A DNA stretch of 64,000 nucleotides from sequence record OQ540978.1, one strand, 5' to 3'. Positions 11,569-50,343 of this stretch are shown in pieces (position 1 is the first letter of the stretch; every line of letters starts with the position of its first letter). The position numbers and the translations under genes are program-made. This DNA comes from Escherichia phage pEC-N1203-2Af.1. The notes below the pieces were generated by a model. That model was not told the origin of the DNA, did not search any database, and was given only the letters and a program-made list of their open reading frames with translations.

Positions 11569-12079
11569 CTCTGAAGAAAAGAACAAGATCTCATTATTTA
11601 AAGAACCTGTAGTTTATAAAGACTTTATCAGAGACCAATATAATGAGATGTTAAAGAAGCAAGCTGATTCTAATCTTCGTTATCAGCGAATAGTAGAACA
11701 AAATAACTTTAAAGGTTTACTTGAATGGTAACTTATATACTTTACTTTTTAGCTTTCTTAGGAATAATCTTTTTATCTATTATTCTTGAATTTGGTTTAA
11801 GTAAGTTAGTTAATTATTTAGGTAGTAAGTAATTAATATTCTTTTAAATAGAGAATCAAAGTCCCTAGGAGTCCCTACAACCTAAATCAAGGATTCCTTA
11901 ATTCTCTATTTTTATCTCGCAGGTGGCTCCTGCCCTTCGGTACTTGCAAGGGATTCTGTGAATTGCCCAATATACAAGCCTGCAATAACTTTATCAGCTA
12001 TACAATATATACATTACTAGTGTGTTATATCTACTACCAAAGATACTTATATTATATAGTACTCTTATCGGTATAAGCG

Positions 12080-12088
12080 TAATGTATA
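12080..12088 (+). promoter_or_regulatory. candidate phage-sigma promoter motif TAATGTATA
   Basis: Exact TAATGTATA 60 nt upstream of the ATG at 12148 in a 400-bp non-coding region. Confidence 0.4.
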
Positions 12089-12147
12089 CTATACATAACC
12101 GCTCAAAGAGAGCAACAATCTTTCAAATTAAATAAGGAAATTAAAAT

Positions 12148-12894
12148 ATGTCTATGATTCCAACTATCGCAACTTCTTCCCGTAAATCCAACTACGACAT
12201 TATCCCTGATGGTGAATATGAAGCACGTATCGTTCGTGTAGTAGGCTTGGGTGTTCACAATCGTGACCCTTGGATTGACCCGAAGACCAAAGCAGTAACT
12301 CCTAAGAATCCAGCTTTCCGTATGGATTTGGCTTTCGAGCTGATTGGTGTTGATGCTACTGGTAAAGATTCCGATGGTAAGGCATTAGAGCCACGTCCTG
12401 CTTGCCAGTTCAAGAGTTATGACGTAAACCCACGAGCTAAGAACTCTGGTATCCTTGATCTCTGCAAGATGATTGATCCAAGCATTCAAGCACTGAAAGG
12501 TGATCTGTCTTGGTTTAAGGATGTGCTGTTAGGTCAGCCTGTTAACATTCTGGTTAACTCTTATACTAACAAAGCTGGTGAAGTTAAAAACTCCATCAAA
12601 ACCATTTCTCCAATCCCAACCAAATATCGTGCAGCAGTTGGTGAAGCTCGTAGTCCTCTGGTATTCTTCGAACCATACGCGGAAACCGATGAGAACGTAG
12701 CATCCTATCAACTGATGTTCCCGTTCCAGCGCAACCTGCTTACTCAAGCTAATGACGCTAAGAACATGCCTCTGGCTGGTCGTGAAATTACTCGTGCTTC
12801 TGAAACAGAACAGAAAGAAGCTACTCCTTCAATCCCTACGATTGATAAAGAGCCTGCTTCTACTTATGAAGATGACGACTCTAGCCCGTTCTGA
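12148..12894 (+). CDS. putative single-stranded DNA-binding protein
   Basis: Acidic C-terminal tail YEDDDSSPF resembling the SSB DDDIPF tail; strong RBS; T-rich codon third positions. Confidence 0.45.
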   Translation: MSMIPTIATSSRKSNYDIIPDGEYEARIVRVVGLGVHNRDPWIDPKTKAVTPKNPAFRMDLAFELIGVDATGKDSDGKALEPRPACQFKSYDVNPRAKNSGILDLCKMIDPSIQALKGDLSWFKDVLLGQPVNILVNSYTNKAGEVKNSIKTISPIPTKYRAAVGEARSPLVFFEPYAETDENVASYQLMFPFQRNLLTQANDAKNMPLAGREITRASETEQKEATPSIPTIDKEPASTYEDDDSSPF

Positions 12895-12915
12895 TAACTC
12901 TCCTTGTTATAGCTT

Positions 12916-12939
12916 AGCCACCTTCGGGTGGCTTTTTTC
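12916..12939 (+). terminator. rho-independent terminator
   Basis: AGCCACC-TTCG-GGTGGCT then TTTTTT. Confidence 0.7.
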
Positions 12940-12951
12940 GTTGGAGACAAC

Positions 12952-13302
12952 ATGCAAAACACGTTAAGCGATAACCTAGGGTTTGTTATCTTTTCTGCTC
13001 TGGTATTCTTTGGTGGTATGAAGTTTAATGAGTATCGGACAGATAGTAACAATCTAGATAAAGAAAAGCATCAACAAGAGTTAGAAATAGAAAGAAGTAA
13101 AGCAGCTGATGAAGTTGCTCAGAGAGTTCTTACCGGTTTATCCAACTGGAAGAAGAACACGGAAACCGTTTATAAAGAGATGCATTATGAGAAAACTAAA
13201 CCAGTTTTTTATAATGTCTGCGCTAGTGATGACTACATCCGCATGTTCAACGAGCGACAGCAGCAGGCAATCAATGCCCTTACCAACAAACCTAAAAGCT
13301 GA
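12952..13302 (+). CDS. i-spanin (Rz-like)
   Basis: N-terminal TM helix LGFVIFSALVFFGGM followed by charged helical/coiled-coil region; contains an embedded out-of-frame lipoprotein gene. Confidence 0.55.
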   Translation: MQNTLSDNLGFVIFSALVFFGGMKFNEYRTDSNNLDKEKHQQELEIERSKAADEVAQRVLTGLSNWKKNTETVYKEMHYEKTKPVFYNVCASDDYIRMFNERQQQAINALTNKPKS

Positions 13303-13446
13303 ATGTAGGGTTGACCTACCTCTTTTAGAGAGTGCTCAAGGAAAGGCACTAGCCACTACGTTGGAGTGGTATCAGGACCAGTACACAGAATGTGCTGCTA
13401 ATCACAATGGATTGTTAGAAGCTCTGAAAGAGCGTGGAATAGAGTA

Positions 13447-13447
<1 letters not shown>
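13187..13447 (+). CDS. o-spanin (Rz1-like lipoprotein), overlapped architecture
   Basis: Lipoprotein-type signal peptide MRKLNQFFIMSALVMTTSAC, Pro-rich mature region, C-terminal Cys; starts inside the i-spanin gene and extends past it. Confidence 0.5.
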
Positions 13448-14933
<1,486 letters not shown>

Positions 14934-25248: not shown

Positions 25249-26031
25249 TTACTTAACACCAATGCTAGCCAAACGTCTAAGCACTGCTTGTGTTTGTGGG
25301 CTGTACTGAGAACCTGCCGCATGTGGTGCACTCGCTCTCTGAACTGTTTGAGATGTAGGAGGTTTACCAGCAAGCATAGCAGCTACTCCTAATACTGCAT
25401 TACCAAAGTTCTGTTGAGGCTTCTGATCTTCACCTTCCTGCACTTCATCAGAGTAAAACTCTACCGGATTACCACCTAAAGCACCTGTCTTAGAAGCAGC
25501 AATCTCTGCCTGAGTGGGAGCTTGTGCAGCCTTCTCTCTGTCTAACAAGTCAGGATTAAACTGATTGACTGGTTGAACAGCTTGCAAAGCTCCAATTGGG
25601 TTAGCAATCTGAGAAGCTGCATCGCCGTAAAAAGGAAGAAAGTGTTTGTTGTTCATTGAGTCAAGAGCCTGAGGAGTAAATCCTTTCTTACCAGCGAACA
25701 TCTGCCTAGCACCACCGGTTCCTTCAGAGTAGCCGACCATTGCCTTCTTAACATCACCATTGAAAGCTTTTAAGTTATCTCTGATATAACGAGCACCCAT
25801 GTCAATATTCTTTGCTGGGTCCAGTCTGTCTTCTAGTTTGTATCCATAGTCTTTAGCCAATCCTTTACTGATCTGCATTAAACCTACAGGACCAGTTCCA
25901 GAGGCTACTTTAGGACGTCCACTAGACTCTCTTTGGATTACAGCATGAATCAAAGCAGCAGGAATCCCATACTTCTTTGAAGCTTGCTGTACCATTGGGT
26001 CTAGTTCTTCGATACCCATTCTAATTGCCAT
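25249..26031 (-). CDS. virion-associated lytic transglycosylase (SLT domain)
   Basis: RESSGRPKVASGTGPVGLMQI resembles the SLT catalytic region. Confidence 0.6.
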   Translation of the reverse strand: MAIRMGIEELDPMVQQASKKYGIPAALIHAVIQRESSGRPKVASGTGPVGLMQISKGLAKDYGYKLEDRLDPAKNIDMGARYIRDNLKAFNGDVKKAMVGYSEGTGGARQMFAGKKGFTPQALDSMNNKHFLPFYGDAASQIANPIGALQAVQPVNQFNPDLLDREKAAQAPTQAEIAASKTGALGGNPVEFYSDEVQEGEDQKPQQNFGNAVLGVAAMLAGKPPTSQTVQRASAPHAAGSQYSPQTQAVLRRLASIGVK

Positions 26032-31931: not shown

Positions 31932-32423
31932 TTAATATTTACCTTCAGTGTAAAGATCAGCTTCTGCAACCCTTCTATTATGAAGACCCTGACTTCTCTG
32001 CTTTTCTCCCCTGACCGTTATTTTATCCCAACGAAGAAATTCGGAATATACATCCCCTTTCACTTCTCCATTGATAACCTTCCTTAACTTAGATGTGCTC
32101 AAAGCACCACTGCCAACATTGAAGTTGAAAGAAGTGAGTGCATCAAACTCATGAACTAGCAAAGGAATCTTTATGTTCTTCTGAGTAGCACGAACAGAGT
32201 CTTGTGTGTCTCTATCTAGCAGAGCTAGACAATCCTCTATAGAATACGTTAATCCTTGTCTAACCGGATAACCATTCATATCGCGCGTAGCCCCTACACA
32301 TATCGTCCAGATACCTGCGGAATCTTTATAAGCCTTGGTTCTCATACCCTCATGCTTCATGATGAATTCCATTCCAGCTGGGCTTAAGTTTAATTGTACA
32401 GGCGGCAATGCGGCGTTATCCAT
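31932..32423 (-). CDS. endolysin, T4-type lysozyme (GH24)
   Basis: FIMKHEGMRTKAYKDSAGIWTICVGAT matches the lysozyme catalytic region. Confidence 0.7.
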   Translation of the reverse strand: MDNAALPPVQLNLSPAGMEFIMKHEGMRTKAYKDSAGIWTICVGATRDMNGYPVRQGLTYSIEDCLALLDRDTQDSVRATQKNIKIPLLVHEFDALTSFNFNVGSGALSTSKLRKVINGEVKGDVYSEFLRWDKITVRGEKQRSQGLHNRRVAEADLYTEGKY

Positions 32424-32451: not shown

Positions 32452-32670
32452 TTAAGGTAGTATCTTTCTCAGAGCGTTAGATTCAGCATCAGGACAAATA
32501 ACAACTAGGTTATTTTGAATTGTTCTCTGCTTGCATTGAGAGCTAAGCTTCTCTACTGGAGCAGGGACAGTTACTAATGGATGAACTGCGCTTACAGGAA
32601 CTGCGGTTGACACCACAACGCCTGCACCTAAACAGATTAAACCATATGCAGCCTGTTTCATCATTTTCAT
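32452..32670 (-). CDS. small membrane or secreted protein next to endolysin (possible holin)
   Basis: N-terminal MKMMKQ then 23-residue hydrophobic stretch. Confidence 0.35.
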   Translation of the reverse strand: MKMMKQAAYGLICLGAGVVVSTAVPVSAVHPLVTVPAPVEKLSSQCKQRTIQNNLVVICPDAESNALRKILP

Positions 32671-49004: not shown

Positions 49005-49496
49005 ATGGCTAAAATAATGCAAGTAGTAAATCTGGCAAGTTATGCACTAGTCGCCGCGATCGGTGTTAGTGCGCTGGTATCTTCCTTTCCTGATAAGGCT
49101 GTTGCTAGTCCTGCTCCTGCAACTGATGCGGCTAGTGTCTTCGTTAGTTCCATCAATAAAGGTTGGATGATTTGCAACGGTGCTGATAGTGACACCAATC
49201 AGATCGTTTTAAAGGTTAAATTCAGTAACGTTTCCCGTGATGGTCTGGTCGTTAGTACCAAAACACTGGACAATCAGCCTAACAGTGATCTAGTTCTCAA
49301 GCGTACTGATAACGATGCGGATATGGTGACTTATGGCACTGTACAACGTTACAGCCATGCGAAAGCTGTCACGAATCTGGTCAGTTATGGCCCGGTTAAG
49401 GAGTCGATGATCGCCACCACGGTTTACAATAACGCTGATAACGCTGTTTATACCGTTCACGTTAATCTAGCCAACTGTATTAAGGCTAGTAAGTAA
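49005..49496 (+). CDS. secreted/periplasmic protein (signal peptide)
   Basis: N-terminal hydrophobic signal-like segment ending ...AVASPAPA; higher GC than the late genes. Confidence 0.5.
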   Translation: MAKIMQVVNLASYALVAAIGVSALVSSFPDKAVASPAPATDAASVFVSSINKGWMICNGADSDTNQIVLKVKFSNVSRDGLVVSTKTLDNQPNSDLVLKRTDNDADMVTYGTVQRYSHAKAVTNLVSYGPVKESMIATTVYNNADNAVYTVHVNLANCIKASK

Positions 49497-49977: not shown

Positions 49978-50343
49978 ATGTGGTTTATTAAATTCATCGT
50001 TAAGATGGTTGTAGGCTTTTTTCTGGTTGTTCTTCTGTTAGGTGTCCTGCTATCGGCTATGGGTAGCGTTAAGGCTGCAACGTTTTCCCCTGATACGGTT
50101 GACGGTTTACAGTGTACCTATCTCGTAGAAAACTATGAAACTGGTAAAAAGTCACCTAAAGTTATTATTTTGCATGTAAATGATTTTGATCATGTGCAAT
50201 CAGATAGTAAAACTATTCTACTGGTAAACGAAACTACCGGTAAACAAATCACGGTCAATCACTTGATGCGCTCATCGTTGACGCTCTTTGATGAGTCCAT
50301 GAATGAAATTGAGTCCGGTAATGGTCAATGTGTAAATCCATAG
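49978..50343 (+). CDS. secreted or membrane-anchored protein
   Basis: N-terminal hydrophobic segment VGFFLVVLLLGVLLSAMGSVKA. Confidence 0.5.
   Translation: MWFIKFIVKMVVGFFLVVLLLGVLLSAMGSVKAATFSPDTVDGLQCTYLVENYETGKKSPKVIILHVNDFDHVQSDSKTILLVNETTGKQITVNHLMRSSLTLFDESMNEIESGNGQCVNP

Follow-up and report, generated by a model that had tools for sequence, protein, structure and literature searches.

A probable overlapped spanin gene pair set apart from the other lysis genes in a Kuravirus-like Escherichia phage

Do two overlapping open reading frames (ORFs) that lie far from the endolysin gene of a phage, and on the other strand, encode its spanins? This question was raised by a stretch of 64,000 nucleotides (nt) of Escherichia phage pEC-N1203-2Af.1 (sequence record OQ540978.1), which we call the window. 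An initial annotation had proposed that the window holds an overlapped spanin pair of the Rz/Rz1 type and that its lysis genes are dispersed. From the features described below we consider it very likely that the locus is a two-component spanin of a Kuravirus (phiEco32-like) podophage with overlapped architecture (Summer 2007; Kongari 2018), composed of a protein of the inner membrane (i-spanin) and a lipoprotein of the outer membrane (o-spanin). By analogy with characterised systems, disruption of the outer membrane at the end of infection would be its most likely function. The pair is already known and ordinary for this phage group, being annotated in Escherichia phage Paul and catalogued for PhiEco32 in 2018. 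Coordinates are collected in Table 1.

Close to its N-terminus, at about residues 9-23 (nt 12976-13020), the predicted i-spanin has a single hydrophobic segment, LGFVIFSALVFFGGM, with a Kyte-Doolittle mean of 2.23 over 15 residues; the remainder of the protein is charged. This segment was kept in all homologues, and for the Paul orthologue the GenBank annotation note gives a transmembrane domain (TMD) at 8-23 by TMpred with a score of 1694. The protein matched phrog_1152 'Rz-like spanin' at 6.1e-38 over 114 of its 116 residues. An AlphaFold2 (AF2) model with a mean predicted local distance difference test (pLDDT) score of only 63 was used for secondary structure only. In it, helices at residues 3-81 and 93-111 are interrupted by a break (82-92) that falls on the conserved TKPVFYNVCAS motif; this lends weak support, at low confidence, to a periplasmic domain resembling the helix-hinge-helix plan of i-spanins. 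Cys90, within the motif YEKTKPVFYNVCASDxY..FNE, was invariant in the available alignments.

The second ORF is read in the +1 frame relative to the i-spanin gene, starts inside it and runs 145 nt past its stop. The N-terminus of its product, MRKLNQFFIMSALVMTTSAC followed by STS, combines a basic n-region, an uncharged h-region and the relaxed lipobox TSAC with Cys20 and a Ser at +2. The predicted lipoprotein signal covers residues 1-19 (nt 13187-13243), the codon of Cys20 lies at 13244-13246, and the mature protein would have 67 amino acids (aa). The annotation note of the Paul orthologue, which refers to that protein and not to the window sequence itself, gives a LipoP SpII score of 18.03 with cleavage at 19/20. 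Two further cysteines, Cys40 and Cys69, were invariant in the available alignments, and the protein matched phrog_2425 (unnamed) at 2.2e-27. No C-terminal hydrophobic segment was detected in it; the maximum 19-residue hydropathy, 1.07, falls in the signal peptide. A unimolecular spanin of the T1 gp11 type was ruled out, since the o-spanin carries no C-terminal TMD beside its lipobox. A large protein-database search with the o-spanin returned only 6 clusters, 4 of them of a truncated 57-aa form, and its comparisons were therefore made at the DNA level and by tblastn.

Whether both frames are coding could be judged from the way the locus varies. In an alignment of 6 Kuravirus-like loci, variable sites were counted per codon position (1/2/3). 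The segment read only as i-spanin had 23/11/50 variable sites by i-frame position, and the segment read only as o-spanin had 18/5/38 by o-frame position. Since variable sites follow the i frame before the i-spanin stop and the o frame after it, the coding phase switches exactly at this stop. Within the locus, variation is lowest in the 116-nt overlap, with 19% variable sites versus 36% and 42% in its flanks, and such lowered variability is what dual coding predicts. We regard this pattern as decisive in favor of purifying selection on both predicted reading frames. With the 145-nt extension, the Cys20 lipobox and this phase switch, the proposal of a lipoprotein gene lying out of frame within, and reaching beyond, the gene of a transmembrane protein has held up well. 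So has that of an overlapped pair of the Rz/Rz1 type, given the single N-terminal transmembrane segment, the lipobox, the +1 frame, the overlap and the annotation of the Paul orthologues as i- and o-spanin.

A wider set of 13 loci pointed in the same direction. It comprised Kuravirus, Suseptimavirus, Nieuwekanaalvirus, Felix O1, Mooglevirus, Erwinia Kolesnikvirus, Sashavirus and a Proteus Gorganvirus, and in 13/13 the o frame showed an M-[KR]-[KR]-L start, an uncharged stretch, a [GAS]-Cys lipobox and then Ser or Thr. One might still suppose that the second ORF is open by chance, within a real gene and past its end, as ORFs of this kind do turn up by chance. Four distinct ORFs with a relaxed lipoprotein signal were found in the window, the three others probably spurious, and 30 Markov-1 shuffles gave a mean of 0.73; the lipobox regular-expression scan is by itself not significant for the o-spanin. 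A chance frame would, however, not be expected to dictate where third-position variation falls past the i-spanin stop or to lower variability in the overlap, and in distant phages 29-39% protein identity is kept. The codon-phase data together with the conservation of start and lipobox in the 13 loci refute this explanation, to which we give practically no credence. DNA similarity to Felix O1-like myophages was confined to positions 13186-13253 (79% over 68 bp), the stretch that holds start and signal peptide of the o-spanin as well as the YEKTKPVFYNVC motif of the i-spanin. This confinement to the overlap illustrates what appears to be slower divergence through dual-coding sequence.

The start of the o-spanin deserves attention, as most Kuravirus records call this gene 'hypothetical protein' or use a 57-aa form that has no lipoprotein signal. 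Translation only from the internal Met30 (MPLPTNL..., 57 aa) would leave neither a lipid anchor nor an overlapped pair, and it is this form alone that is found in most database entries and in several GenBank records (ShigP1 1775-1948, IME267). Gene callers, however, have a known bias against overlapped starts (PMC6139136), and over the 29 codons upstream of Met30 none of the 13 loci has lost the M-[KR]-[KR]-L start, the uncharged h-region or the lipobox Cys. A stop codon stands 1 codon upstream of this start in Felix O1, Erwinia and Maleficent (Mooglevirus), and relatives whose pair was split by an HNH gene regenerate a lipoprotein signal. An exclusive Met30 start therefore appears very improbable to us. 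The same upstream stop speaks against a longer form, a 112-aa ORF from the ATG at 13109, which was rejected since its upstream extension is not conserved as coding sequence. For the i-spanin, a GTG start at 12928 was likewise discarded: it lies inside the terminator hairpin, and the extension upstream is not conserved as coding sequence. The practical value of the present work lies in this annotation, and the right start-site assignment matters to those who engineer therapeutic-candidate Kuravirus phages or the timing of lysis in them. In a 2023 review of the group, only holin and endolysin are mentioned (PMC9965538).

The split pairs of these relatives are an observation in their own right. 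In SU7 (1253-2290), EK010 (853-1890) and E20-1 (488-1525; all locus coordinates), a gene for an HNH homing endonuclease lies between the i- and o-spanin genes and separates the pair. In the 3' end of the i-spanin gene the former o-spanin start persists as a decayed copy (MKRLSQFFTMCVLVMSM, then a stop), and a vestigial i-spanin C-terminus (LFNERQQQA.NALTNKPKS, then a stop) follows downstream of the HNH gene. The lipoprotein signal on the o-spanin of these phages is another one, fully canonical and read out of frame from the 3' end of the HNH gene; homology to the window restarts at the lipobox A-C-S. The replacement signal is (GTG)HIKKKLLSCTGILLAFSLSAC in EK010 and E20-1, with an AAGGAG Shine-Dalgarno sequence before it, and MLTKKKQKSCLVIFLASSLMAC in SU7. 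The case parallels that of T5 versus Shivani/phiR201 (PMC6139136), and the apparent regain of a signal indicates selection for the lipoprotein state. Feature lists of SU10, CHD5UKE1 and KM01 also show an HNH or homing-endonuclease gene inside the region that is matched by positions 12000-14600 of the window.

The phage itself is assigned by sequence comparison to Kuravirus, as a phiEco32-like E. coli phage. Positions 12000-14600 matched 98 phage records, all of them Gordonclarkvirinae (Kuravirus / phiEco32-like prolate podophages), with Shigella phage SGF2 closest (96.6% identity), followed by Paul (95.8%). The Paul orthologues, CPT_Paul_036 (92% identity, i-spanin) and CPT_Paul_035 (96.5%, o-spanin), overlap likewise and occupy the same slot, after the 248-aa gene and its terminator and before the genes of the macro-domain protein and the sigma factor; only point differences were seen, such as the lipobox MSAC in Paul and TSAC in the window. 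For KBNP1711, identities were 90.5% (i-spanin) and 80% (o-spanin). Kongari et al. 2018 (PMC6139136) assigned PhiEco32, KBNP1711, NJ01 and ECBP2, along with Felix O1-like phages, to the overlapped 'JH2' i-spanin family; the o-spanins of these four form a group of their own, apart from that of Felix O1. An i- and an o-spanin gene that overlap have also been described in Kuravirus ZCEC16 in a 2026 paper (PMC13417854). By its profile match and its relatives, the window pair is attributed to this phrog_1152 / JH2 i-spanin family.

What argues for a lysis role when the genes stand so far from the other lysis genes? By tblastn, homologues of the i-spanin were found in 451 phage records and of the o-spanin in 359, largely the same genomes, and annotated homologues of the pair carry the names i-spanin and o-spanin. 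In Salmonella phage Sasha the homologous pair, i-spanin first, stands at the end of a canonical lysis cassette, after holin, endolysin and membrane protein, and in Proteus phage RS10pmA it comes right after a gene annotated 'peptidase'. These neighborhoods support a lysis role for the pair, though it is isolated in Kuravirus and in Felix O1. An alternative would be a membrane protein and a lipoprotein that resemble spanins in topology only and have a non-lysis role, such as excluding superinfecting phages or blocking the receptor, comparable to T5 Llp or T4 Imm/Sp. The location in a middle-gene cluster beside a sigma factor, 18.5 kb from the endolysin and on the other strand, would fit this alternative, as would the lack of Pfam and NCBIfam matches and of experimental evidence for the family. 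It does not account well, however, for the neighborhoods in Sasha and RS10pmA, for the paired occurrence of the two genes in hundreds of unrelated phage genomes, or for the conserved periplasmic cysteines and the modelled helix-hinge-helix architecture, and no second spanin candidate of overlapped layout was seen in the window. We therefore hold a non-lysis role to be quite improbable and retain the spanin assignment.

Several observations nevertheless weigh against the latter. The 19-residue Kyte-Doolittle mean of the i-spanin segment is a borderline 1.55, and the N-terminal tail MQNTLSDN contains no Lys or Arg, so that the positive-inside rule leaves the N-in/C-out topology unfixed; distant i-spanin homologues carry K or R in this tail. 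In the o-spanin, the Thr at position -3 of the lipobox lies outside the strict consensus [LVI][ASTVI][GAS]C, and the AF2 model was unusable with a pLDDT of 45.5. Pfam and NCBIfam libraries should include models of lambda Rz and Rz1. The Pfam scan gave no hit at E<=0.1 for either protein save a sub-threshold DUF7333, the NCBIfam scan of both gave none, and a profile search against the PDB returned nothing meaningful (best E-value 0.18) and no solved structure. BLASTP against the verified T4 proteins PseT.3 and PseT.2 paired the i-spanins at E=0.32 and returned no o-spanin alignment. The genes lie among middle genes directly after a terminator, so that we can but infer the timing and level of their expression. 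No published experimental test by complementation, knockout or lipid labelling was found for any member of the family.

Comparison with known systems places the pair among textbook variants. Felix O1-type (Ounavirinae), Sasha/9NA-type and Proteus Gorganvirus pairs are homologous in both proteins at 29-39% identity and overlapped as well, and they share with the window the motif YEKTKP.FYN.C..D.Y..FNE at the overlap with the o-spanin signal peptide. The Felix O1 i-spanin is 31% identical to that of the window. By tblastn, Kuravirus o-spanins were weakly linked to those of Felix O1 (29% identity, E about 8e-4) and more clearly to those of Proteus, Erwinia and Sasha (34-39% identity). The link to Felix O1 is a small extension to the literature, as the clustering of Kongari et al. 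held the two groups apart. Felix O1 also has its spanin pair far from its endolysin, whereas Sasha has a contiguous lysis cassette where the window has an isolated pair, and RS10pmA has its pair after the 'peptidase' gene.

With P2 LysB/LysC, the overlapped prototype, the window shares an o-spanin gene that runs past the i-spanin stop (PMC6139136). Lambda Rz/Rz1 is the experimentally characterised embedded prototype, whereas the window pair is overlapped and not next to holin and endolysin genes. The topology plan predicted for the window pair is that of P2 and lambda, a type II inner-membrane protein and an outer-membrane lipoprotein in the +1 frame, and periplasmic cysteines and a helical i-spanin would be common to them as well. 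Cysteines of this kind, for intermolecular disulfides, occur in 507/528 two-component systems (PMC6139136). The mature o-spanin of the window differs from lambda Rz1, which has 40 aa and is proline-rich, in its 67 aa and its predicted partly helical character. The Pfam scan revealed no detectable sequence similarity to P2 LysB/LysC or lambda Rz/Rz1, and the pair is accordingly placed, as judged by profiles, outside the lambda Rz (Pfam Phage_lysis) and Rz1 sequence families.

A likeness in protein size and gene placement exists with T4, whose PseT.3/PseT.2 proteins complement lambda Rz/Rz1 and have 117 aa and 83 aa (99 codons annotated; PMC6139136), compared with 116 and 86 aa in the window. 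Both o-spanins have two periplasmic cysteines, and in T4 too the genes pseT.3 and pseT.2 sit among early or middle genes and remote from endolysin e and holin t. The architecture, however, is separated in T4 and overlapped in the window. Membership in the T4 family, which the near-identical sizes and a pnk-adjacent position in Felix O1 had prompted us to consider, was rejected for want of BLASTP similarity. With T4 and Felix O1 also separating spanins from endolysin, dispersed lysis genes are neither novel nor unusual, and neither they nor the overlapped architecture carry much weight as a discovery.

A mechanism can be proposed that is modelled on the lambda Rz/Rz1 paradigm. Through its N-terminal transmembrane segment the i-spanin would be fixed in the inner membrane, with some 90 residues, mostly helical, reaching into the periplasm as a domain. 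The o-spanin precursor would be exported, lipidated at Cys20 and freed of its signal by signal peptidase II. According to the +2 rule of Lol sorting, a residue other than Asp at +2 sends a lipoprotein to the outer membrane; since the residue here is Ser and not Asp, the Lol system would sort the o-spanin to the inner leaflet of the outer membrane. The two proteins, probably as homodimers disulfide-linked through the invariant cysteines, would bind via their periplasmic C-terminal parts and form complexes that span the periplasm, threaded through the peptidoglycan mesh. These complexes would stay inert until the late-expressed holin and endolysin destroy the peptidoglycan. Once freed, they would oligomerise and collapse; the inner and outer membranes would thereby fuse, and the last barrier to phage release would fall. 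Since the cell wall itself would restrain the spanins, their co-transcription with holin and endolysin would be unnecessary.

How the pair is expressed can be approached from its surroundings. It is located in the plus-strand middle-gene cluster, close to the phage sigma factor gene, and the order at the locus is a 248-aa protein, terminator, the two overlapping ORFs, a macro-domain protein, the phage sigma factor (gp36 homologue) and a GTP-binding protein, in agreement with the annotated map of Paul. The stop of the o-spanin gene overlaps the start of the next gene (TAATG). The nearest recognisable promoter-like element upstream is the candidate middle promoter motif before the 248-aa gene, which may drive spanin transcription; the consensus of gp36-type middle promoters has been given as tAATGTATAtA (PMC4281155) and as AATGTA (PMC12276001). 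A sigma-70-like match at 13187-13215, inside the overlap, was not accepted as a promoter, promoter-like matches numbering 6 versus 8.8 expected by chance. The strong terminator-like hairpin was kept in all Kuravirus-like loci examined, and Paul has a terminator annotated there too; its region, translated as LSHLRVAFFVG, is conserved in 8 loci. The spanins would thus probably be expressed by terminator read-through, within the middle-gene cluster.

Table 1. Positions of the putative spanin genes, associated elements and other lysis genes in the window
Feature	Positions	Strand	Remarks
Candidate phiEco32-type (gp36-dependent) middle promoter motif	12078..12095	+	gcgTAATGTATActata / TAATGTATACTATA; upstream of 248-aa gene
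Intrinsic-terminator-like hairpin	12916..12940	+	AGCCACC-TTCG-GGTGGCT then T6; ends 12 nt before i-spanin ATG
Putative i-spanin gene	12952..13302	+	ATG 12952 to TGA 13302; 116 aa; GGAG at 12943-12946; phrog_1152; orthologue of CPT_Paul_036
Predicted dual-coding overlap	13187..13302	+	116 nt; i-spanin C-terminal motif in frame 0, o-spanin signal peptide in frame +1
Putative o-spanin gene	13187..13447	+	ATG 13187 to TAA 13447; 86-aa precursor; AAAGAG at 13174-13179; phrog_2425; orthologue of CPT_Paul_035
Virion transglycosylase	25249..26031	-	phrog_12507, 1.8e-176
GH24 (T4-lysozyme-type) endolysin	31932..32423	-	163 aa; PF00959, 1.5e-31; motif E25-x8-D34-x5-T40
Putative class III holin	32452..32670	-	72 aa; phrog_11161 'holin', 4.8e-50; Paul annotation 'holin class III'
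SleB/CwlJ-type hydrolase	55012..55401	+	PF07486 Hydrolase_2, 1.7e-7, 32.2 bits vs cutoff 27; early region

The remaining lysis genes are dispersed as had been claimed, a holin-like gene and the endolysin gene in the late minus-strand module versus the spanins in the plus-strand middle cluster. The T4-type endolysin does lie in the virion module, at a distance of 18.5 kb from the spanin pair where about 19 kb had been given, and the usual, if non-defining, linkage of spanins to holin and endolysin genes is absent here. Profile matches also bore out the small, holin-like protein beside the endolysin, with its single hydrophobic segment, the second, SleB-like hydrolase in the early region, and a virion enzyme of the soluble lytic transglycosylase (SLT) type. 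The holin-like and endolysin genes stand between tail-spike and baseplate genes, and holin and endolysin have been reported among Kuravirus morphogenesis genes (PMC7881722, PMC9965538).

The assignment of the 72-aa protein as a holin is weak. It has one N-terminal hydrophobic stretch only, ending in VSA before VHP, which from its sequence could be a cleavable Sec signal peptide, and for its ZCEC16 homologue a signal peptide only has been reported (PMC13417854). The true holin of Kuravirus phages may be some other gene than the one annotated. The Kuravirus endolysin has been called a signal-arrest-release (SAR) endolysin (PMC13417854); in the N-terminal 22 residues of the window endolysin (MDNAALPPVQLNLSPAGMEFIM), a SAR or signal domain was not evident, the maximum 19-residue hydropathy being 0.82, and no basic n-region was seen. 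Taken to its end, this could mean that Kuravirus lysis has left the canonical coupled programme, with middle-cluster spanins made at a level set by terminator read-through and a 'holin' that is a secreted 72-aa protein, and, separately, that an HNH cassette 'repairs' the gene it interrupts by supplying a replacement signal peptide; we regard this as an unlikely, speculative reading.

In the early region, the Hydrolase_2 protein has no evident export signal. Next to its gene, 55601-55897 (+) encodes 98 aa with an N-terminal TMD and a coiled-coil-like stretch; its family, phrog_12154, is labelled 'DNA helicase' in PHROGs, a label that appears doubtful. A 101-aa ORF at 58955-59260 (+) begins MVMSWGGVITLTCIFIACVALTGC, with the consensus lipobox LTGC inside, and may encode a lipoprotein, for instance for superinfection exclusion. 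Signal- or TM-like N-termini were also seen in the ORFs at 58549-58857, 49005-49496 and 49978-50343.

Two neighbors of the spanin genes finally call for a remark. The 248-aa protein (12148-12894, +; phrog_6599, unknown function), whose gene has its own gp36-type promoter motif and its own terminator, has an acidic C-terminal tail, ...YEDDDSSPF. The C-terminal tip of bacterial single-stranded-DNA-binding protein (SSB) reads DDDIPF, and from this likeness the 248-aa protein may be a phage SSB. In the relatives IMEP8, Bas92, Ptacy1532 and 172-1 the o-spanin region adjoins the sigma-factor gene, and their feature lists show no macro-domain (Appr-1-p processing) gene, which in the window is found at 13447-13887; this suggests that the macro gene is variably present among Kuravirus relatives.

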